From: Bdellovibrionales bacterium
GTDB taxonomy: Bacteria > Bdellovibrionota > Bdellovibrionia > Bdellovibrionales > UBA1609
NCBI GenBank assembly: GCA_963692945.1
Contig: OY843585.1
Coordinates: forward strand, 690,001-722,000
Reading direction: 5' to 3'
Length of the DNA stretch: 32,000 nucleotides
The position numbers and the translations under genes are program-made. Below, piece after piece: positions 5,202 through 29,946 of the stretch (position 1 is its first letter; each line of letters starts with the position of its first letter). Under the pieces are notes generated by a model, which was given only the letters and a program-made list of their open reading frames with translations, was not told where the DNA came from and ran no database searches.

Positions 5202-6992
5202 TCAATCTTTTTTTCTTGAAATAGAAATCCCTAAATCCAAAAGATTTTCTAGATGAACTTCAGAAGGTGCAGCAGACATAAGACAAGCACCACTGGCTGA
5301 TTTAGGAAAAGCCATAGTGCTCCTAATGTTTTCGGAGTTGGTTAGAAGCATTACTAATCGTTCAATGCCCCAAGCAATGCCTCCATGAGGAGGAGTTCCA
5401 TATTGGAGAGCTTCCAAAAAAAATCCAAATTGTTCGTCTATCTCTTTATCACTTAAACCCAGTAAGGAAAATATTTTTTTCTGTAAAGAAGAGTCATGAA
5501 TACGAATACTTCCTCCTCCTAGTTCGTGACCATTACAGACAATGTCATAAGAGCAAGCTTTTACTTGAGCAAGGTCTTTAGGATCCACTGTATCTATAGT
5601 TTTTAAATCATTCTCTTGTGGTTTTGTAAAAGGGTGATGGAGAGGAGTCCATTTTTTTTTCTTTGAATCATATTCAAAGAAAGGAAAATCAGTGATCCAA
5701 ACAAAACGAGTTTTTTGAGTATCAATTAAATTTTGTTCTTTGCCTATAATGTTAATAAGTTGAGACAAAACAGTATTTACTATGGAAGATTCTCCTGAGC
5801 AAATCAAACAAAGTCCGTTTTTAGATCTTCCACTGGCTTCATAAAGAGAGTTCAACTGATCTTCCGTTGTCCATTTTTTAGCAGGAGATTTAAGCCCTTC
5901 TTTAGATTTTTGTATCCAAAGTAAACCCCCTCCTCCTAAAGATTTTGTTAAGTCATTGAGTTGATCTAAGCGACTTCTTGAAAGTTGGAGATTTTTTACA
6001 AAAAGAGATTTGGTTTGGTGATTTTCTTTTAAAGAGGTTTGTAAAATTTTTAAGCCAGATTGTTTTATGGTTTCTTCTTTTAAAATTTTTAATTCCAAAG
6101 GATTTCTTAAATCTGGTTTATCTGTTCCAAAACGATCTAAAGCCGTTTGATAACTTAAACTTGGAAAATCTGTGATCGTTTCATTTTTTATTTTTTTCCA
6201 TAGAACTTTTAGGAGATTTTCTGTGATATCTTTTATATCTTTTTCCTCTACAAAACTCATTTCTAAATCAAGTTGTGAAAATTCAGGCTGACGATTTGAT
6301 CTTAGATCTTCATCGCGAAAACATTTAGCGATTTGGAAGTATTTCCCAAAGCCAGAAATCATTAAGAGTTGTTTTAAAGTTTGAGGGCTTTGAGGGAGAG
6401 CGTAAAAAGAACCTTTTTGATTTCTAGATGGAACTAAAAAATCTCTTGCTCCTTCGGGGGTGCTTTTGTAGAGGATAGGAGTTTCTATCTCATAAAATTC
6501 TAAGTTAGATAACTCTTCTCTAATAATTTGAGTGATGCGATGACGAATTTTTAAATTGTTTTTGAGATCTGATCTTCTTCTAAAATCTAGATAACGGTAT
6601 TTGAGAGCTAAATTTTCATTGATAGAATCTCCTTCACGAAAAGGAGGTGCTTTGCAAGAGGAAAGTAGGAGTAAATCTTCAACAGGAATTTCAATCATTC
6701 CTGTTGGTATTTTCTTATTTTGCATTTCTTTTGGACGTTTTTTAACAAGACCTTTGATGGAGATAACAGCATCATAATGTAAATCTTTTACATTAAAAGA
6801 GTGATCTTGATTTGTATCTAAAACAATTTGTACAAGGCCTGATTCATCAGCCATATCAATAAATAAGAGATGGCCGTGATCTCTGATTTTTTTGATCCAG
6901 CCATTAAGAATAACTTCTTTATTTTCGTAAGTTGCATTGAGATCGCCACAATGGTGGTTGCGTTTCCAGTTTTTTTTGAGGTTTAATTTCAT
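5202..6992 (-). CDS. aspS: Aspartate--tRNA ligase
   Basis: Class II AspRS features: N-terminal HHCGDL...VILNGWIKKIRDHGHLLFIDMADESG (OB fold), FRDEDLRSNRQPEF (motif 2 region), GGGSIRIH and GTPPHGGIAWGIERLVM (motif 3). The track ORF starts at a TTG (7028). The ATG at 6992 (MKLNLKKNW..) fits the usual AspRS N-terminus better. Confidence 0.92.
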   Translation of the reverse strand: MKLNLKKNWKRNHHCGDLNATYENKEVILNGWIKKIRDHGHLLFIDMADESGLVQIVLDTNQDHSFNVKDLHYDAVISIKGLVKKRPKEMQNKKIPTGMIEIPVEDLLLLSSCKAPPFREGDSINENLALKYRYLDFRRRSDLKNNLKIRHRITQIIREELSNLEFYEIETPILYKSTPEGARDFLVPSRNQKGSFYALPQSPQTLKQLLMISGFGKYFQIAKCFRDEDLRSNRQPEFSQLDLEMSFVEEKDIKDITENLLKVLWKKIKNETITDFPSLSYQTALDRFGTDKPDLRNPLELKILKEETIKQSGLKILQTSLKENHQTKSLFVKNLQLSRSRLDQLNDLTKSLGGGGLLWIQKSKEGLKSPAKKWTTEDQLNSLYEASGRSKNGLCLICSGESSIVNTVLSQLINIIGKEQNLIDTQKTRFVWITDFPFFEYDSKKKKWTPLHHPFTKPQENDLKTIDTVDPKDLAQVKACSYDIVCNGHELGGGSIRIHDSSLQKKIFSLLGLSDKEIDEQFGFFLEALQYGTPPHGGIAWGIERLVMLLTNSENIRSTMAFPKSASGACLMSAAPSEVHLENLLDLGISISRKKD

Positions 6993-7086: not shown

Positions 7087-8022
7087 GTGGAGTCTTCTAA
7101 AAAATCAAAAATTCAAAAGAGTCGTAGGCTTGTTGTAAAAAAGAAGAAGCCTATTGTGTCACCAGAAGTTGTATCTTCTACTCCTATAGGAGGAGGGAGC
7201 ACTCTCCATAATTATTTACATCAGATTTCAAAGACATCTATCTTGACTAGAGAAGAGGAGTATAAATTAACAGTTCGTTATTATGAAACAAAAGATATAG
7301 AAATTGCTCAAAAGTTGATTCAATCCAATCTAAGATTTGTTGTGAAAATTGCTTTAGAGTACAGTCGGTTTAGTTCTAAAATTATGGATATCATTCAAGA
7401 GGGTAATATTGGATTGATCAAGGCCGTTCAAGAATTTAATCCTTATAAAGGGGCAAGGCTTATAACTTATGCTGTATGGTGGATTAGAGGTTACATTCAA
7501 GAGTATTTGATTAAGCATCACTCTGTTGTTCGTCTGGGAACAAATAAAAAACAGAGGAAATTGTTTTACCGATTGCAAAAAGAAAAACAAGCTCTTGAGC
7601 AATTTGATAGGTTAAAGCTTCTACCTGCTATTGCTGAATCCACTCAATCAACAGAAAAGGAAGTGGAAGAAATGGAGCAATTTATTCTTAAGAAAGATGT
7701 GAGTTTAGATCAGCCTATAAAAAAGGATGTAACAACTACTTTTTTAGATTTGCATCCTGATGATTCCCCTTCTATAGAAGATCAACTTTCTCTTGAAGAG
7801 CAGGGATTGCTTTTAAGAAAACATTTGAAACAGATGGAAAAAGAACTTAATGAAAAGGAAAAAGTAATTATAAAAAATCGGTTATTAAAAGATCCTCCAG
7901 ATACCTTACAAGCCATTGCTAATAAATTTGGAGTGACGAGAGAATCTATCAGACAGGTAGAGGAGCGACTTTTTAGAAAATTAAAAGAAAAATTAATCCC
8001 TATTCTTAAAAAATCTTATTAA
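7087..8022 (+). CDS. rpoH: RNA polymerase sigma-32 (heat-shock sigma factor)
   Basis: Sigma-70 family regions 2-4 are present: NLRFVVKIALEY, DIIQEGNIGLIKAVQEFNP, ITYAVWWIRGYIQEY. It has an RpoH-box-like KKQRKLFYRLQK and a C-terminal HTH (LQAIANKFGVTRESIRQVE). It uses a GTG start and has a lysine-rich N-terminal extension. Confidence 0.85.
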   Translation: MESSKKSKIQKSRRLVVKKKKPIVSPEVVSSTPIGGGSTLHNYLHQISKTSILTREEEYKLTVRYYETKDIEIAQKLIQSNLRFVVKIALEYSRFSSKIMDIIQEGNIGLIKAVQEFNPYKGARLITYAVWWIRGYIQEYLIKHHSVVRLGTNKKQRKLFYRLQKEKQALEQFDRLKLLPAIAESTQSTEKEVEEMEQFILKKDVSLDQPIKKDVTTTFLDLHPDDSPSIEDQLSLEEQGLLLRKHLKQMEKELNEKEKVIIKNRLLKDPPDTLQAIANKFGVTRESIRQVEERLFRKLKEKLIPILKKSY

Positions 8023-8918
8023 GCAGCCTTAAGTTCTTCTTCTTTGACTTGATTGACTAATTTTGTTTTCAGTCTTTCAATGGCTTGAGTACGCAATTGG
8101 GACACTCGGCTTTCTGTTATTTTTAGAATTTGTCCTATTTTTCTGAAATTAAATTCTTCGTAATAGTAAAGAGAAAGCACTATCCTTTGTCTTTCAGGTA
8201 GTTCTTCTATAGCATTTTTGATGATTTTTTGAATGGATTTTCTATTTACAATATTAAAAGAAGAGTTTTTATTTTCTAATATTGTTAAAACAGAAACCTT
8301 ATCTGTTTTACTAAAAAATAGAGATTCATCAATAGAGACCATATTTACTTTGTTCGTTTCCTTTAGAATTTCATGATACTTTTCTATAGTTATATTCATG
8401 GCTTTTGCTATTTCTTTAGATTTAGGGATTCTAGAGTATTTTTGTTCTAATTCTTGTGTGACTTTATTGATTTTTTTAGTTTTATCCCTGATGGAACGAG
8501 GTATCCAGTCCTGAGATCTCAAAGCGTCTAAAATAGCTCCACGAACACGAAATTCAGCATAAGTTTTAAATTTATTATTACGGGTAGAGTCAAATTTCTT
8601 AATAGCATCCATTAAGCCAATGACACCATTAGAAATAAGATCTTCATGGTCAATATGGGCTGGTAATCTTGATGAAATTTTTCTAGCCACACAGCGAATC
8701 ATTGGCATATATTCTACGATGATTTTATTTCTTTGAGAAATAGATATTTTTTTATTTTTACCAAAAGATTCTTCAGGAGTCTTTAGATCTTTTTTATTTT
8801 GAAAAGGGATAATCTTATTATCTGTAGAACATGATATTTTTTTATCCATCTTCTTTAGTTTTGGAGACTTTACCTTTTTTCTTTTATCTTGAAAATTAAT
8901 AATTTTATTTGTTTTCAT
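8019..8918 (-). CDS. fliA: Flagellar sigma-28 factor (FliA/WhiG family)
   Basis: DLISNGVIGLMDAIKKFD...FKTYAEFRVRGAILDALRSQDWIPRSIR is the FliA-type region 2-3. The C-terminal region 4 is LPERQRIVLSLYYYEEFNFRKIGQILKITESRVSQL. The ATG is preceded by AAGGAG. The gene lies directly downstream of the fliL-like gene on the same strand. Confidence 0.85.
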   Translation of the reverse strand: MKTNKIINFQDKRKKVKSPKLKKMDKKISCSTDNKIIPFQNKKDLKTPEESFGKNKKISISQRNKIIVEYMPMIRCVARKISSRLPAHIDHEDLISNGVIGLMDAIKKFDSTRNNKFKTYAEFRVRGAILDALRSQDWIPRSIRDKTKKINKVTQELEQKYSRIPKSKEIAKAMNITIEKYHEILKETNKVNMVSIDESLFFSKTDKVSVLTILENKNSSFNIVNRKSIQKIIKNAIEELPERQRIVLSLYYYEEFNFRKIGQILKITESRVSQLRTQAIERLKTKLVNQVKEEELKAA

Positions 8919-14458: not shown

Positions 14459-15559
14459 ATGAAAAACTTAGTGATGAGTTTATGTGTGATCTTAGTAGGT
14501 CTATTGTCTGTTTCTGTTTATGGAACAGGAATACGAAAAATATACTTACCTCAGACAAATCTTATTGTTAAGCCTTCTTCAATTCAGGAAGATAAGTTCA
14601 CTCTTAGTGGGGGTATTTTACCAAACCCTTATGACCCTGTAGTATTTAGTTATAATTTACAAGCTTTTCACAGAAACGCAAAAGTCAAAACCGTTAAACA
14701 TATTCTTACTGATATGTTGAGGACAGATACCGTTTTTACTTTATTTCAAACTCGTCATTTTGATGATTCCATGGCTTCTTTAGAATCTAGTGGAGAGGGA
14801 AAAGGAGAATCTTTAGTTATTCCTTATTCTCTAGGTAACTCAATAGATGAGATTAGGGCTTCCGTAGAAAAACAAAATTTTAGTCATGATATGAGATTTC
14901 TTATTTTCACTCACTTTCTTTACGATCAAAAGATTTCTGATGAAGATGTCTTGAAGCTTTTTGATTCTATAAATCTTCCAAAGGATTTTATATTTACAGG
15001 TAAATCTTTAAATATTTTAGAAAATCATTCAGAAAATTTTCTTATAGATTTTTATTTTAAAAATCAATCTGGTTCTTTAAATAAGGAAGAGCAGAAAAAT
15101 TTAAAAATAAACTTAGACATTGTTAGACGTTTTTTGATGGATAAAAAAATGATGGATAAATATTTTTTAACAACACCGTCTCATGAAATATCTGCTAGTT
15201 TTAGAGTGGAATTGATAGAGCAGATGATACAGCAAGGAAAACTAAACTTTAAAGTGAAAGATGATATAGGAAACACTTTTTTACATGTTTTAGGATCTAA
15301 TAAACATTTAAAAAAAGAGAATTGGATAAATATTATAACTCATTTGGCTGAAGATGCCAGTGTAGATTTTGATATGAAAAATGAAGAAGGTTTTACTTTT
15401 TTAACAGTTCTCACAAGTTCTGGTTTCAAGGAGCCTTTAGAGTATCTTGTGAATCTTAGGGGGGGGGGTAGATATTTTTACCAAAGATATCTACAATCGT
15501 TCTCTTTTGCAGATAGCAGCAGAAAGTTTAAAATACAATATAGCTTCTTATCTCTATGA
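14459..15559 (+). CDS. Secreted ankyrin-repeat protein, 5' ORF of a gene interrupted at a G10 tract
   Basis: Signal peptide MKNLVMSLCVILVGLLSVSVYG. ANK-like repeats lie near the C-terminus (GNTFLHVLGSNKH..., EGFTFLTVLTSSGFKEPLEYLVNL). After the G10 tract the frame runs 30 more non-ANK codons to a stop. Confidence 0.7.
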   Translation: MKNLVMSLCVILVGLLSVSVYGTGIRKIYLPQTNLIVKPSSIQEDKFTLSGGILPNPYDPVVFSYNLQAFHRNAKVKTVKHILTDMLRTDTVFTLFQTRHFDDSMASLESSGEGKGESLVIPYSLGNSIDEIRASVEKQNFSHDMRFLIFTHFLYDQKISDEDVLKLFDSINLPKDFIFTGKSLNILENHSENFLIDFYFKNQSGSLNKEEQKNLKINLDIVRRFLMDKKMMDKYFLTTPSHEISASFRVELIEQMIQQGKLNFKVKDDIGNTFLHVLGSNKHLKKENWINIITHLAEDASVDFDMKNEEGFTFLTVLTSSGFKEPLEYLVNLRGGGRYFYQRYLQSFSFADSSRKFKIQYSFLSL

Positions 15560-16481
15560 AAAGGCAGGAGATCAGATCAATGAATTGAGTTATTTAAATG
15601 GTTATGTCACCAGTACATTTCAACCTGTTGTTTTAGAACCTGTTTCTTATTTTGGTTTGAGCTTTTTAACATCTCCTGTTTTAAAAACTATGAAATATAA
15701 ATATGGGAATAATCAACATCTTCTCAATGAAATAAATTCAAATTTTGTTAATTCTATTGGTAATTTGGCTTTATCTTTTACTGCCTATGAGGATAATAGA
15801 GTTGATTCTCTTCGGGAGATTTTTTTACGTCAAACCATTTTAAGTCATTTTTTATTGGCTTTGAGAGAGGGTGATACAGATTCCTTGAAGAACATTATAT
15901 CAAAGACACCAGAAATTGTAGATACTGTCATTTCTAGAGATTTAATTGAACCTAATAGCAGTTCAAAGGTTCGGGTTTATTTAACAGATATGCTTATAGA
16001 GTCCATTCGTTACAATCAACCAGGTAGTGTGAAGTTTATTTTGGAACATATGAAAGGCACAAGCTTGAACATAGGGGATATAATGAATCCTTTAACATCA
16101 GCTATTATGACTTCTTTTCTTATTGAGTACAATAGCGAGAAAGAAAGAGAAAAATCTTTAGAAATTATTAACATGCTTATAGATCAAAAGAGTAAAGAGA
16201 TAGATCTTAGAACCGATTCCATTTTAAATTTAAAACCTATAGATTTAGCTTCTATAGCAGGACTTGTTGATGTTGTAAAAAAACTTCACGAAGAACATAA
16301 TATCCCTCTTCCAATATATGAAAATGGAATTTTAGGAACAGGTGTTGATCATGTTGATCTGGCTTATAGCCAAGGGTTTAAGGTTTTAGCCCAATATTAC
16401 GAGCAAAATATTGAAGGTCAAGAAGAAGCAGACACTAGTGATGAATTGGCTTTAAAGAAGTGTCGTGAAACTTTTCATTGA
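15453..16481 (+). CDS. Ankyrin-repeat protein, 3' ORF (continuation of 14459.. in the +1 frame)
   Basis: The frame is open from 15453; the track starts it at a TTG at 15507. ANK-like repeats run throughout (NRSLLQIAAESLKYNIASYLYEKAGD; LKPIDLASIAGLVDVVKKLHEEHN). No convincing independent start or RBS. Confidence 0.65.
   Translation: MLGGGVDIFTKDIYNRSLLQIAAESLKYNIASYLYEKAGDQINELSYLNGYVTSTFQPVVLEPVSYFGLSFLTSPVLKTMKYKYGNNQHLLNEINSNFVNSIGNLALSFTAYEDNRVDSLREIFLRQTILSHFLLALREGDTDSLKNIISKTPEIVDTVISRDLIEPNSSSKVRVYLTDMLIESIRYNQPGSVKFILEHMKGTSLNIGDIMNPLTSAIMTSFLIEYNSEKEREKSLEIINMLIDQKSKEIDLRTDSILNLKPIDLASIAGLVDVVKKLHEEHNIPLPIYENGILGTGVDHVDLAYSQGFKVLAQYYEQNIEGQEEADTSDELALKKCRETFH
15459..15468. repeat. 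G10 homopolymer at the junction of the two ankyrin ORFs (candidate slipped-strand switch or homopolymer sequencing error)
   Basis: Ten consecutive G at 15459..15468 in an AT-rich genome. The downstream ORF's frame is open from 15453. Removing one G joins ...LEYLVNLRGG to VDIFTKDIYNRSLLQIAAESLKYNIASYLYEKAGD, which is a continuous ANK repeat. Confidence 0.9.
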
Positions 16482-16565: not shown

Positions 16566-17018
16566 TTAATTCCATTTGAAACAAAAATTAATAAATATTT
16601 TTTGATCTTTTTCATCTATTGCAATAGATTCTTCATCTCTAATAGAATATTTTATGAAATCCCATTTTTCATTCTTTGCAAAATAAGATTGTGTATCGCA
16701 GGGTCTTTGTTCATGCCCAACATTTAATATAAATTGGTCTGTTTTGATAGGGTATAAGAGGTCATCTAAAAAGTTATTGCTTTCAGATGATTTTTGATAA
16801 AAGTTTAATAGCTTGTTTTTTGTAGATTTAATTTCTTTTAATGTATGATCAATATTACAGAAGATACAAAATTTAGCTTCTGTTTTTTGAGATAAAGGAT
16901 GTTCTTTAGAATCAATGATTAGTTGATTTAATAGATCGTCCTTGCTCTCTGCCAAGCTACTTATAGAAAACAATAGGTAGTAAAATACAAAAAAAATTTT
17001 TAAAATAGGAACCAACAT
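16566..17018 (-). CDS. Small secreted hypothetical protein
   Basis: 150-aa ORF with an ATG start and signal peptide MLVPILKIFFVFYYLLFSISSLA. It has several Cys residues (FCIFCN, RPCD, NFCF). I recognise no family. Confidence 0.5.
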   Translation of the reverse strand: MLVPILKIFFVFYYLLFSISSLAESKDDLLNQLIIDSKEHPLSQKTEAKFCIFCNIDHTLKEIKSTKNKLLNFYQKSSESNNFLDDLLYPIKTDQFILNVGHEQRPCDTQSYFAKNEKWDFIKYSIRDEESIAIDEKDQKIFINFCFKWN

Positions 17019-23763: not shown

Positions 23764-26700
23764 ATGGATTTCAGAAGTAAATTGTTAGATATATTGTTTA
23801 AAATTTTTATATGGATCATTGTGGCTTTGTCAGCTGGAGTTTTACTCTCTTGTGTTTCTACAAAAAAGAAACTAAATCCTAAGATTATAAAAGTAGAAAA
23901 AAGTCATTTTTTTAAATCTAAATCTGTGGGAAAAGATAAATTAAAAAGAAATACTAAAAAATATGAAAGAAAAGAATCAAAAGCCACAGGAGTCATTCTT
24001 AAATTTTATAATTGGCCTAGTGTTAAAGAAACCCAGTTAATAATAAAGCATTTAAACAAAAAAGGTTTAAAAAAACTAAAGACGGTTGAGAGTTTTAAAA
24101 TCTGGTTGTTTGAATGGCCTGAAGTTGAATTAAAATCGGCTCGGATGGCTTGGAGATCTTGTAAAAATATATCAAAACTATCTGCTCGTTTGAATTACTG
24201 TGAACCAAATTATTTGCTGACTCCAGATTCAAAACTTATGGATACGGAAGCCACTTCTACAGATATTGAATGTAAAACTTGCAATGAAAATAAGATTCAG
24301 CCTATAAAAAATGTGAATACCTGTGAGCTTGTAGCTTCAAAGCTCAAACTAAAAAAAGGTCAACTTTCTGATTACTGGGCACAAGAGTTAATAGGTTCTG
24401 ATCTTTTAAGAAAAGAATTTGAAAAAGTTCCAATTCCTAAAAAAGAAAATTTTATTACAGTTATAGAGTTTGGTGATTCAGAAGATCGTCATATGAATCT
24501 TGTTAAAAACCTTATTTCAGATGAAGGGTCTCATGCTATTTTACCAAGATTAGAAGGTAAATCTTCTAAATGGAATAAGATAAAAAAGACAGATACAAAC
24601 ACAAGTCTAGTTACTCAGTTCATAAATGGAGGTGCGACCTCCTATTTAATAATAGCAGAAAAATTAAAATATAAACCTCCGTCTTTTATCAATAGCAGTA
24701 TAGGTTGGGGTCAGTCAAAAACGGTCTATGAGGCATTTAAATCTCTTTCTTCACATTCTATTCTAGTAGCTTCTGCTGGTAATTATTTTCCTGAAAAGAT
24801 AGACAAAATGCAAGAGAAAGCCTCAAAAGATTTTGATGCTATTTTGGTTGGAAGTTTTAGTCCTAAAGGTTTTGTGAGTGAGTTTTCAAAGGAAGGAGAG
24901 GAAGTTCATATATTAGCTCCTTCCGATCTCTGGCTCACTTCTATGTACAAGAACAAGCCTTATAAAAATTTTGGAGGGACAAGTGGTGCTGCTCCTTTAG
25001 TTACAGGAAGCCTTGCTGGTTTTGAATGGCTTTCTGGTTATCATCCTACTGCAAAAGAAGCAAAAATAATTTTAAAAGAGACAGCTTTACCTACATTGCA
25101 TTCTCGTCAAAATAAAGTGGGTTTATTAAATTCTTATAGGATTGGAATGGTTGCCAAAAGATTAAAAAAGAAATGTGAAGATAAAGAACTCACTTGCTTT
25201 GCGAAAGAGATTAGAGATAAAAAGAATTATCAATTTCAGGTGGATGAAAATAAAATAAAAAAAGATATAGATGAAGTTTTTTCTGCTTGTAGTTTTGGAA
25301 ATAAAAAATCTCAAGCAGTAGAAAACACAACTTGCGAACAAAAGAAAAAAGTTTTTACAAAACTTAGAAAAACAATACTACTTAAGCCCAATCATCGTGA
25401 ACTCTGGGAGTCTTTAAGTTGTATTTATAGGCAGGAAGGATTTTCAGAAAATGCAAAAGCTTTAGATAATATAGCTCTTGCTTTTGATAATAGCAAAGTA
25501 GTGGTTGAAAAATTAATGAAACAGATTCTGAGTTCTGATGAGGGTTTAGAGTATGTGATTAGAAGACTAAATAAAGAAATAGGGTTTGAAATTGCTAAAA
25601 AAATGTTTACAAATAAAAATCTAATTATTAGAAGAGGGGTTATATACGGTTTATCTCAAAATGATGAAGGGCTACCTTTTTTAGAAAAATTTGCAGAAGA
25701 TAAATCTTCAGATGTGAGAAAAACTGTTGCACTGAGTTTATCTGAAATGGGTTACAAGGGGCTGCCTCTTTTAGAAAAATTGGCAGAAGATGAAAATTCA
25801 GATGTGAGAAAAACTGTTATATGGAGTTTATCTAAAATAGGTAACAAGGGGCTGCCACTTTTAGAAAAATTGGCAGAAGATGAAAATTCAGATGTGAGAG
25901 AATCTGTTGCACGGAGTTTATCTAAAATAGGTAACAAGGGGCTGCCTCTTTTAGAAAAGTTGGCAAAAGATGAAAATTCAAATATAAGAAAAACTGTTGC
26001 AGTGAGTTTATATGAAATAGGTGACAAGGGGCTACCTCTTTTAGAAAAGTTAGCAAAAGATAGATCTTCATTTGTGAGACGATCTGCTGTATGGGGTTTA
26101 TCTGAAATAGGTGACAAGGGACTGCCACTTTTAGAAAAATTGGCAAAAGATAAAAATTCAAATGTGAGACGATCTGCTACACTGAGTTTATCTGAAATGG
26201 GTGCCGAGGGACTGCCACTTTTAGAAAAATTGGCAAAAGATAAAAATTCAAATGTGAGACGATCTGCTACACTGAGTTTATATAAAATAGGTGCCGAGGG
26301 ACTGCCTCTTTTAGAAAAGTTGGCAAAAGATAAAAATTCAAATGTGAGACGATCTGCTACACTGAGTTTATCTGAAATGGGTGACAAGGGGCTGTCTCTT
26401 TTAGAAAAATTGGCAAAAGATAAAAGTTCATATGTGAGACAATCTGTTGCACGGAGTTTATTTGGAATGGGTAACAAGGGGCTGTCTCTTTTAGAAAAAT
26501 TGGCAAAAAATAAAAGTTCAGATGTGAGACGATCTGTTGAACTGAGTTTATCTGAAATGGGTGACAAGGGGTTGCCTCTTTTAGAAAAACTGGCAACAAG
26601 TGATGATTCAAATATAAGAAAATCTGCTATACTGAGTTTATATAAAATAGGTGACAAGGGGCTGCCTCTTTTAGAAAAATTGGCAAAAAATAAAAGTTCA

Positions 26701-26973
26701 GATGTGAGACGATCTGTTGTAGTATTGGGTTTATCTAAAATGGATGGCAAGATAGGGCTACCTCTTTTAGAAAAGTTGGCAGCAAGTGATGATCCAAATA
26801 TAAGAGAATCTATTATATGGAGTTTATCTAAACTGGGGGACAAGAAGTGGGTTCCTCTTTATAGAAAATTGGCAACAAGTGATGATCCAAATGTAAGAGA
26901 ACTTGCTGAAAAGATTTTAAGTGACCGACAAAAGGGATTCTTACCACCACTCCAAGAGTCTTTTTATCCTTGA
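23764..26973 (+). CDS. Membrane-anchored subtilase-like (S8) protein fused to about 14 HEAT-like (PBS-lyase-type) repeats
   Basis: 1069 aa. It has an N-terminal TM helix (IFIWIIVALSAGVLLSCV) and an I9-propeptide-like segment (..LNYCEPNYLLTP). S8 landmarks are ITVIEFGDS (Asp-box position), EGSHAI (His box), ILVASAGN (oxyanion Asn) and GGTSGAAPLVTG (Ser box). These are followed by 30-aa repeats GLPLLEKLAKDKNSNVRRSATLSLSEMGDK. Confidence 0.8.
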   Translation: MDFRSKLLDILFKIFIWIIVALSAGVLLSCVSTKKKLNPKIIKVEKSHFFKSKSVGKDKLKRNTKKYERKESKATGVILKFYNWPSVKETQLIIKHLNKKGLKKLKTVESFKIWLFEWPEVELKSARMAWRSCKNISKLSARLNYCEPNYLLTPDSKLMDTEATSTDIECKTCNENKIQPIKNVNTCELVASKLKLKKGQLSDYWAQELIGSDLLRKEFEKVPIPKKENFITVIEFGDSEDRHMNLVKNLISDEGSHAILPRLEGKSSKWNKIKKTDTNTSLVTQFINGGATSYLIIAEKLKYKPPSFINSSIGWGQSKTVYEAFKSLSSHSILVASAGNYFPEKIDKMQEKASKDFDAILVGSFSPKGFVSEFSKEGEEVHILAPSDLWLTSMYKNKPYKNFGGTSGAAPLVTGSLAGFEWLSGYHPTAKEAKIILKETALPTLHSRQNKVGLLNSYRIGMVAKRLKKKCEDKELTCFAKEIRDKKNYQFQVDENKIKKDIDEVFSACSFGNKKSQAVENTTCEQKKKVFTKLRKTILLKPNHRELWESLSCIYRQEGFSENAKALDNIALAFDNSKVVVEKLMKQILSSDEGLEYVIRRLNKEIGFEIAKKMFTNKNLIIRRGVIYGLSQNDEGLPFLEKFAEDKSSDVRKTVALSLSEMGYKGLPLLEKLAEDENSDVRKTVIWSLSKIGNKGLPLLEKLAEDENSDVRESVARSLSKIGNKGLPLLEKLAKDENSNIRKTVAVSLYEIGDKGLPLLEKLAKDRSSFVRRSAVWGLSEIGDKGLPLLEKLAKDKNSNVRRSATLSLSEMGAEGLPLLEKLAKDKNSNVRRSATLSLYKIGAEGLPLLEKLAKDKNSNVRRSATLSLSEMGDKGLSLLEKLAKDKSSYVRQSVARSLFGMGNKGLSLLEKLAKNKSSDVRRSVELSLSEMGDKGLPLLEKLATSDDSNIRKSAILSLYKIGDKGLPLLEKLAKNKSSDVRRSVVVLGLSKMDGKIGLPLLEKLAASDDPNIRESIIWSLSKLGDKKWVPLYRKLATSDDPNVRELAEKILSDRQKGFLPPLQESFYP
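25669..26925 (+). repeat. In-frame 90-bp (30-aa) tandem repeat array, about 14 units, encoding the HEAT-like repeats
   Basis: The period was measured directly; for example, actgccactt recurs at 26121 and 26211. Central units (about 26120-26400) are nearly identical at the DNA level. A degenerate extra unit precedes the array at about 25582. Confidence 0.92.
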
Positions 26974-29093: not shown

Positions 29094-29430
29094 TAGAAAC
29101 AAAATGTCACATTGCACACTAAATTAGGGGTAAGTAGCCTAAGATTCTAAGACTTATATCCTATAGTTGTGAGATATAAAGATAGGTGTTCTTAACTTAT
29201 GTAGTAAGTGATTTTTTTTTATTTTAAATAAGAAAAACACATGAAAAGCCCTTGAGTTTGCTAGTTTTTTTAGAAATAAGACAAAGTCATCTAAGGCAAA
29301 TCTATGGTTCAATGATTAGAAAAAAAGAAGATATTTTAGAAAAATAAAATAAAAAAATAATTTTTAGTTTGATAAACAAAATCATTTTTGCATATTCTTA
29401 TATATATACCAAAAAACAATGGAGGTAATA

Positions 29431-29946
29431 ATGGCTAAGAAAAAAAGAAGAACAGTTAAGAAAAGGGTAGTTAGAAAGAAAAAAGTGACTAAGAAGAAAA
29501 AGGTAGTTAGAAAGAAAAAGGTTGTTAGAAAGAAGAAGGTAGTTAGAAAGAAAAAAGCGACTAAGAAGAAAAAGGTTGTTAGAAAGAAAAAGGTAGTTAG
29601 AAAGAAAAAAACGACTAAGAAGAAAAAGGTTGTTAAGAAGAAAAAGGTAGTTAGAAAGAAAAAAGTTGTTAAGAAGAAAAAAGGGAAATCTAAAAGAAAG
29701 CCCAATTCGGCTTTTATGAAAAGTTTAAAGGTTTCAGCGGCTCTTCAAGCAATTATTAATGTTTCTTCTGTATCTCGTCCTCAGGCTACGAAAAAAATCT
29801 GGATTTACATAAAAAAACACAACTTACAAGATCCAAAGAATCGCCGTATGATTTTTATTGATGAAAAACTGAAACTTGTTTTTCCTGGTAAAAAGGTGAT
29901 CAGTATGTTTGACGTGGCTAAGATGATGGGTAAACACCTCAGCTAG
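29431..29946 (+). CDS. Lysine-rich hexapeptide-repeat protein with C-terminal SWIB/MDM2 domain
   Basis: The ATG at 29431 is preceded by GGAGG (29421-29425); the track start at 29419 overlaps that SD. Residues 3-90 are VV(R/K)KKK-type repeats. The C-terminal roughly 80 aa (LKVSAALQAIINVSSVSRPQATKKIWIYIKKHNLQDPKNRRMIFIDEKLKLVF...MFDVAKMMGKHL) are a clear SWIB domain. Confidence 0.85.
   Translation: MAKKKRRTVKKRVVRKKKVTKKKKVVRKKKVVRKKKVVRKKKATKKKKVVRKKKVVRKKKTTKKKKVVKKKKVVRKKKVVKKKKGKSKRKPNSAFMKSLKVSAALQAIINVSSVSRPQATKKIWIYIKKHNLQDPKNRRMIFIDEKLKLVFPGKKVISMFDVAKMMGKHLS

Follow-up and report, generated by a model that had tools for sequence, protein, structure and literature searches.

A run of ten G splits an ankyrin-repeat gene in a Bdellovibrionales genome and is a candidate slipped-strand switch

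The window analyzed here is a stretch of 32,000 nucleotides from the genome of an uncultivated Bdellovibrionales bacterium (assembly GCA_963692945.1, contig OY843585.1, positions 690,001–722,000 of the forward strand). It contains two overlapping ankyrin-repeat open reading frames (ORFs), between which the reading frame changes at a homopolymer of ten G (G10). As judged from their homologues, the two ORFs are a single ancestral ankyrin-repeat gene. The explanation that we favor for the split, at slightly less than an even chance, is genuine slippage in vivo at an intrinsically hypermutable run, such that the gene is OFF in most of the sequenced cells and can revert.

A direct count of the sequence gives exactly ten G at positions 15459–15468, inside coding sequence. 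This is the sole run of G or C longer than six in the window, which has a G+C content of 32%, and no run of six or more C occurs in its 32 kb. Deletion of one G yields a 673-residue ORF (the repaired protein), in which the junction peptide reads LEYLVNLRGGVDIFTKDIYNRSLLQIAAES. When tract lengths from G5 to G14 were translated in silico, G6, G9 and G12 gave full-length products of 672, 673 and 674 residues, respectively; G7, G10 and G13 gave 365–367 residues with an out-of-frame tail; and G5, G8, G11 and G14 gave 335–338 residues, with a stop at the TAG directly after the run. As assembled, the stop codon of the upstream ORF (ORF1) falls 91 bases past the run, and the downstream frame is open from six bases ahead of it (15453), just past a TGA at 15450–15452. 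At the level of its arithmetic, the locus resembles simple-sequence contingency loci: a mononucleotide tract of at least about 7–8 lies in a reading frame, and a change of its length toggles between a full-length and a truncated product. By chance, a 32-kb window would be expected to contain 0.001 (independent bases) to 0.005 (first-order Markov model) G/C runs of at least ten. Scaled to the 1,561,448-bp source contig, the expectation becomes 0.05–0.25 runs of at least ten and 0.3–1.2 runs of at least nine, so that a single run in the genome is no evidence of selection on its own.

The unity of the gene is supported both by profile matches and by intact homologues. Pfam Ank_2 matches residues 291–374 of the repaired protein with 43.9 bits (cut-off 27.3), across the junction at approximately residue 335. 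An intact protein of 676 residues (P0001) is 49% identical to the repaired protein over 97% of its length. Its gene holds the same position between purE and purK on a 45.7-kb contig of GCA_029782575.1 (L001, the orthologous locus), and the alignment is collinear across the site, with DIFxKDIYNRSLxQIAAE conserved right after it. An exhaustive search with a profile, covering 1.84 billion representatives, returned further full-length members of 657–717 residues (P0124, P0125, P0135, P0136, P0157, P0162, P0175, P0176, P0178 and P0189) as well as ORF1 and the downstream ORF (ORF2), which are kept in public collections as separate proteins (P0122 and P0123, respectively), each a singleton cluster from the same 1,561,448-bp contig. 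In the resulting 15-sequence alignment, every full-length member found is a single ORF running through the tract site, and relative to these intact homologues the frame of the present gene is disrupted. Two truly separate genes are ruled out, since Ank_2 and the predicted fold both cross the junction and no homologue begins or ends there. An earlier note, made from the letters of the window alone, had placed a G10 run where two ankyrin ORFs change frame, had given the G9 junction peptide and an ORF of about 673 residues, had expected a truncated form of 366 residues as sequenced and had taken the two ORFs for one gene. The sequence and its translation agree with it exactly (ORF1 at 14459–15559), and the intact homologues, the syntenic orthologue and the Ank_2 match across the junction bear out the single gene. 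Its remark that such a run is very unlikely by chance is right for the window, but does not hold strongly for the whole genome.

In the mechanism that we favor, a lineage-restricted ankyrin gene with a signal-peptide-like N-terminus would have one of its inter-repeat loops encoded by the G run (AGG GGG GGG G..), in codons uncommon in the source genome, and the assembled length of ten would leave it one base out of frame. Most of the sequenced cells would carry the OFF allele and would make at most a truncated 366-residue product, the export of which is predicted. Since a run of G9–G10 is intrinsically hypermutable, the OFF state should be reversible: the loss of one G or the gain of two would restore a protein of 673 or 674 residues, in which a length-tolerant loop contains RGG or RGGG. 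In mechanism, the locus would then act as a simple-sequence ON/OFF switch, with G9 and G12 as ON and G10 and G11 as OFF lengths; G10 would be real in vivo and the tract would probably switch. The predicted structure is informative about the loop. In a confident single-body AlphaFold2 model calculated from the 15-sequence alignment (predicted local distance difference test, pLDDT, 80.6; predicted template modeling score, pTM, 0.77), which supersedes an earlier model from a 2-sequence alignment with a pLDDT of 41, R334–G336 lie directly after helix 324–332, in the loop leading to helix 349–355 of the next repeat. The loop (333–348) is flanked by helices 314–321, 324–332, 349–355 and 359–373. In the family alignment the columns at the tract are variable and contain insertions and deletions, so the loop should accommodate one more Gly, as encoded by G12.

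The tract resembles the polyG/polyC contingency loci of Campylobacter jejuni, and also those of Helicobacter, Neisseria and Haemophilus, in being an intragenic G run of 8–11 in a small AT-rich genome. The genome of C. jejuni is similar to the source genome in size and G+C content, in-frame tract lengths are ON and out-of-frame lengths OFF, and its products are exported or surface-associated, as is predicted here. In C. jejuni, high switching rates are found for G8–G11 runs, and 9 is the most frequent tract length (PMC3401435); strain NCTC11168 has 29 tracts of at least seven (PMC4965091), for which both variation in length and conservation among strains are documented. Nevertheless, there are clear differences, as one tract is known here and the sole orthologue is without it, the tract lies in the middle of the gene and not near the 5′ end, and the gene codes for an ankyrin-repeat protein. 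The poly-G runs of the Chlamydia pneumoniae pmp genes likewise cause frameshifts in genes for exported proteins of a reduced-genome, host-dependent bacterium, with paralogues of which some are frameshifted; Pmp proteins, however, are autotransporters rather than ankyrin proteins, and their length variation has been shown experimentally. Literature searches for phase-variable ankyrin genes, and for the accessions of the assembly and runs, returned nothing relevant, and simple-sequence phase variation is not known to us from any ankyrin protein, nor from this bacterial group.

The history of the tract can be read from its relatives. At the same site the orthologue has GTG AAA AAT AAA AAA TCA GAT (VKNKKSD), which is A-rich and has no G tract, and the paralogue P0124 has TAC GGT GGA GAT (YGGD), in which Gly-Gly is written in the common codons of the genome. 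In the window, 13.8% of the Gly codons are GGG and 12.2% of the Arg codons are AGG, and the probability of AGG GGG GGG given the peptide R-G-G is about 0.002. Among the sequences compared, the G tract is specific to this lineage. The closest relative by aspartyl-tRNA synthetase (AspRS), with 84% identity, is represented by a contig that ends just short of the locus (L002); among the matches listed, relatives by AspRS carry the labels of Bdellovibrionales or Oligoflexia metagenome-assembled genomes, and those listed from genome contigs, labelled Bdellovibrionales, reach at most 50% identity, which places the source organism only roughly.

Several observations weigh against in vivo switching. 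The tract is not retained at its site in relatives, although this is a weak test, with the orthologue 49% and the paralogue 36% identical. No G/C run longer than seven occurs in six related loci of about 128 kb in total, and the window has one tract longer than six. Approximately one G/C run of at least nine is predicted by chance for a genome of 1.56 Mb. In addition, one family member elsewhere is split at a short A run, at which fast switching is not expected, and simple loss therefore occurs in the family. The assembled length is also that at which long-read consensus turns unreliable: with Oxford Nanopore R10.4, a homopolymer must be shorter than about 11 bases for a reliable consensus, and those of at least ten 'will probably still be problematic' (PMC9262707). 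Finally, no other copy of the locus was found by protein-alignment scans of genome and metagenome contigs, nor was a second copy found with an exact-flank DNA pattern allowing a variable gap. Look-ups of the exact proteins of ORF1, ORF2, purE, UvrD and AspRS gave no record; the public collections searched hold one assembly of the source organism only. With respect to function, it is doubtful that the tract is a selected contingency locus, stochastically switching an exported ankyrin protein in an uncultivated, reduced-genome, Bdellovibrio-like bacterium; if it were, it would serve as bet-hedging in the interaction with host or prey.

The age of the frameshift constrains every explanation. Downstream of the tract there is no stop over approximately 340 codons of DNA with 29% G+C, and this half of the protein is 56.7% identical to the orthologue, compared with 45.5% for the upstream half. 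Neither further lesions nor relaxed constraint was found in the downstream half. An old pseudogene is ruled out by this lack of decay; the frameshift must be very recent, reversible, compensated or artefactual.

An artefact, which the earlier note had named as an alternative along with a recent pseudogene, is the foremost rival. The true tract would then be G9, or a G12 that was under-called, and an error of assembly or base calling would conceal an intact gene. We regard this as rather unlikely, with substantial points on both sides. The source is a single contig of 1,561,448 bp, which suggests a long-read assembly; the sole homopolymer of at least ten in the window coincides with its sole frameshift, and the intact downstream half would be expected. 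However, the remainder of the window shows no other homopolymer frameshift, despite 17 A/T runs of 8–9 within ORFs, all of which stay open. Each of the 19 other genes in common with the orthologous locus can be aligned over practically its full length, at 49–91% identity; the only departures are offset start codons and one gene that the end of the locus truncates. The glutaredoxin gene is present as well. A related long-read assembly in the European Nucleotide Archive (L083) illustrates how a truly error-prone sequence differs, having several split genes within 22 kb. There, the CarD gene (L083 5290–5783; 67 + 111 residues) and a gene for 221 residues (7441–8107; 114 + 112 residues) are split, and both are intact in the syntenic locus L084. 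Moreover, a genuine frameshift in this family is found in a short-read assembly, on two contigs (L085 and L086).

That frameshift also bears on the next rival, in which the gene would be a young and effectively irreversible pseudogene: a dispensable, fast-evolving accessory gene leaving a reduced genome, with slippage as its first lesion. In the Logan short-read assembly of SRR1802789, P0143 (277 residues, N-terminal part) and P0128 (428 residues, C-terminal part) are adjacent ORFs of one split gene (L085 5001–7144, and also L086) with intact neighbors. On L085, homologues match frame 3 as far as about 5840 and match frame 2 starting at about 5786; the frame switches at or beside an A6 run (5802–5807), where one extra A would restore KKKTFDIHSTDIIGDSLVH. 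A third member, P0126 (L087 4447–6530), is likewise split into two ORFs but counts for little, as it comes from an error-prone long-read sample. The split in another organism at an A run makes ordinary gene decay a live alternative: members of this fast-evolving family have suffered frameshifts repeatedly, in at least one case where the tract is not expected to switch rapidly. Other points in favor of a pseudogene are the reduced genome (a 1.56-Mb contig with 32% G+C), the orthologue without a tract, hence without long-term conservation of a switch, and the ankyrin gene being the least conserved of the 20 genes in common with the orthologous locus (49%, the others 49–91%), which is consistent with fast evolution. 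Nevertheless, we consider a young pseudogene improbable. There is no second lesion downstream, where the sequence is better conserved than upstream; G10 should revert readily, so that irreversibility would need a loss of selection; and a G-rich run would be expected to erode fast under AT-biased mutation.

Recoding, in which the G10 allele would give the full-length protein through a +1 ribosomal slip or through RNA-polymerase slippage in the G run, is by far the least probable of the explanations that we weighed. In the ribosomal case, peptidyl-tRNA-Leu would slip from CUU to UUA at CUU-AGG-G (15455–15461) to give ..NLGGGVDIF.., and a +1 slip at CUU-AGG does restore the downstream frame, which is open at this point. 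CTT AGG G matches the first six bases of the +1 frameshift heptamer of yeast Ty1, CUU-AGG-C, and AGG-AGG induces +1 shifts in Escherichia coli, while transcriptional slippage reportedly rescues poly(A) frameshifts in insect endosymbionts. As in those frameshifts of Buchnera and Blochmannia, a homopolymer frameshift is found here in an otherwise intact gene of a reduced AT-rich genome; the runs there are poly(A) of at least ten, however, whereas RNA-polymerase slippage is less established for poly(G), being best documented for A/U runs. A 12-bp hairpin with a folding free energy of −10.7 kcal/mol (z −5.35) starts 7 nucleotides after the AGG codon, but a 10-bp version is also present in the intact orthologue (L001 11008–11030), and, taken together, the 121 nucleotides of the region show no unusual degree of structure (z −0.82). 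The hairpin arises because the codons of DIFxKDI are palindromic, that is, mutually reverse-complementary; it has no counterpart in the paralogue at L083. Furthermore, AGG is not especially rare among the Arg codons of the window, and no homologue is frameshifted at the tract site. A conserved programmed frameshift is ruled out by these unshifted homologues and by the three split positions in the family, which differ (family positions of approximately 150, 266 and 335).

Coordinates of the split ankyrin-family gene and its parts within the 32,000-nucleotide window
Feature	Position	Strand	Details
Whole ankyrin-family gene	14459–16481	+	673 residues with G9, 674 with G12; split as assembled; collinear with intact homologues
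ORF1 as assembled	14459–15559	+	ATG start, 366 residues; family residues 1–336 and out-of-frame tail 15470–15559
Signal-peptide-like N-terminus MKNLVMSLCVILVGLLSVSVYG (predicted)	14459–14524	+	Hydrophobic core with Kyte–Doolittle (KD) value 2.96 over 12 residues
Central ankyrin block, across the tract	15329–15581	+	Pfam Ank_2, residues 291–374; profile match, AlphaFold2, Foldseek, PDB profile
Downstream half, +1 frame	15453–16481	+	No stops over about 340 codons; listed ORF2 from TTG 15507, 324 residues
G10 homopolymer	15459–15468	+	Encodes (A)GG GGG GGG G = R334-G335-G336 in the G9 reading
Perfect 12-bp hairpin, one G.U pair	15468–15494	+	First base is the final G of the tract; encodes conserved VDIFTKDIY
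Second, divergent ankyrin-like helical block	15837–16415	+	About residues 460–652; AlphaFold2 secondary structure, Foldseek alignments
C-terminal motif CRETFH	16461–16478	+	C668 and F672 nearly invariant in the family alignment

Assignment of the protein to the ankyrin-repeat class rests on an ankyrin profile above its curated threshold and on a fold of stacked repeats, each a helix-turn-helix with a beta-hairpin or loop, in the predicted structure. Ank_2 matches 14 of the 15 family members. When the predicted structure was compared with the PDB using Foldseek, almost all of the top 50 matches were ankyrin-repeat proteins or designed ankyrin-repeat proteins (DARPins), with E values down to 1e-8, and a family profile searched against PDB sequences matched ankyrin chains almost exclusively (E down to 4e-44). 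No family besides ankyrin matches the protein family in Pfam or NCBIfam, and there is no Rfam match within the window. The N-terminal region that the members have in common is helical and contains an ISD/ISE motif; they also share the central ankyrin block and a second, divergent ankyrin-like block with EAIRxNQPxxVxF. In the repaired protein, the second block has a weak Ank_5 match at residues 592–622, and Foldseek alignments of 400–560 columns to ankyrin arrays were obtained. At their extreme C-terminus, the members carry C-x-x-x-F-[HNL], which is nearly invariant. This motif is not a CaaX box, as its Cys is at position −6 or −7. Judging by the sequence collections searched, the family of two-block ankyrin proteins of about 670 residues with CxxxF is undescribed and has so far been found only in metagenome-derived assemblies; members with readable contigs are on contigs of 1.3–1.56 Mb, or shorter. 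Some genomes have several paralogues: at L087 6639–7850, a second member stands in tandem directly 3′ of the split one. At L083 and L084, the paralogue lies between the Biopterin_H gene and that for E1-beta instead of in the purE/purK position.

The protein is predicted to be exported. A hydrophobic, signal-peptide-like N-terminus is common to most full-length members, and the AlphaFold2 model has a helix at residues 2–15 followed by a linker of low pLDDT. The earlier note had spoken of a secreted protein and of a possible phase-variable effector. The signal-peptide-like N-terminus agrees with the former; the label 'effector' is supported by none of the present results. The ankyrin repeats recall the Ank effectors of Legionella, Coxiella and Wolbachia, which are likewise from bacteria that interact with other cells. 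The Sec-type N-terminus predicted here is similar to that of Bd3460 of Bdellovibrio. Bd3460 is an ankyrin protein that acts as a periplasmic self-protection factor, and a eukaryotic host is thus not implied. Unlike in these known bacterial ankyrin proteins, there are two ankyrin blocks in about 670 residues, a novel N-terminal helical region and the C-terminal CxxxF motif, and there is no sequence relationship with them past the repeats.

Other genes of the window and its relatives were noted in passing. A 150-residue ORF with a signal-peptide-like N-terminus lies convergent with the ankyrin gene at 16566–17018 on the minus strand; it has no Pfam or NCBIfam match and no counterpart between the ankyrin gene and purK in the orthologous locus. 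On the plus strand, 23764–26973 encodes a protein of 1069 residues in which a subtilase (Peptidase_S8) domain precedes many HEAT repeats (HEAT_2, E 4e-107); it is another lineage-specific repeat protein, with no counterpart at its position in the orthologous locus. A SWIB/MDM2-domain protein (E 7e-26) is encoded at 29419–29946 on the same strand; apart from Chlamydiae and some other groups associated with hosts, bacteria rarely have this domain. Topoisomerase VI, an enzyme that is uncommon in bacteria, is encoded by neighboring genes for its A and B subunits on the contig of the closest AspRS relative (L002 12682–15740; TP6A_N/Toprim and Topo-VIb).

Independently of the state of the tract, this analysis defines a new ankyrin family of about 670 residues with a conserved C-terminal CxxxF. 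If G10 is an artefact, a gene interrupted by a G/C run of ten in a long-read genome should be called neither a pseudogene nor two genes until the reads have confirmed the run. If the tract varies in vivo, homopolymer phase variation would be extended to an ankyrin-repeat protein and to poorly known small-genome relatives of predatory bacteria, in which the protein would be likely to matter at the cell–cell interface.

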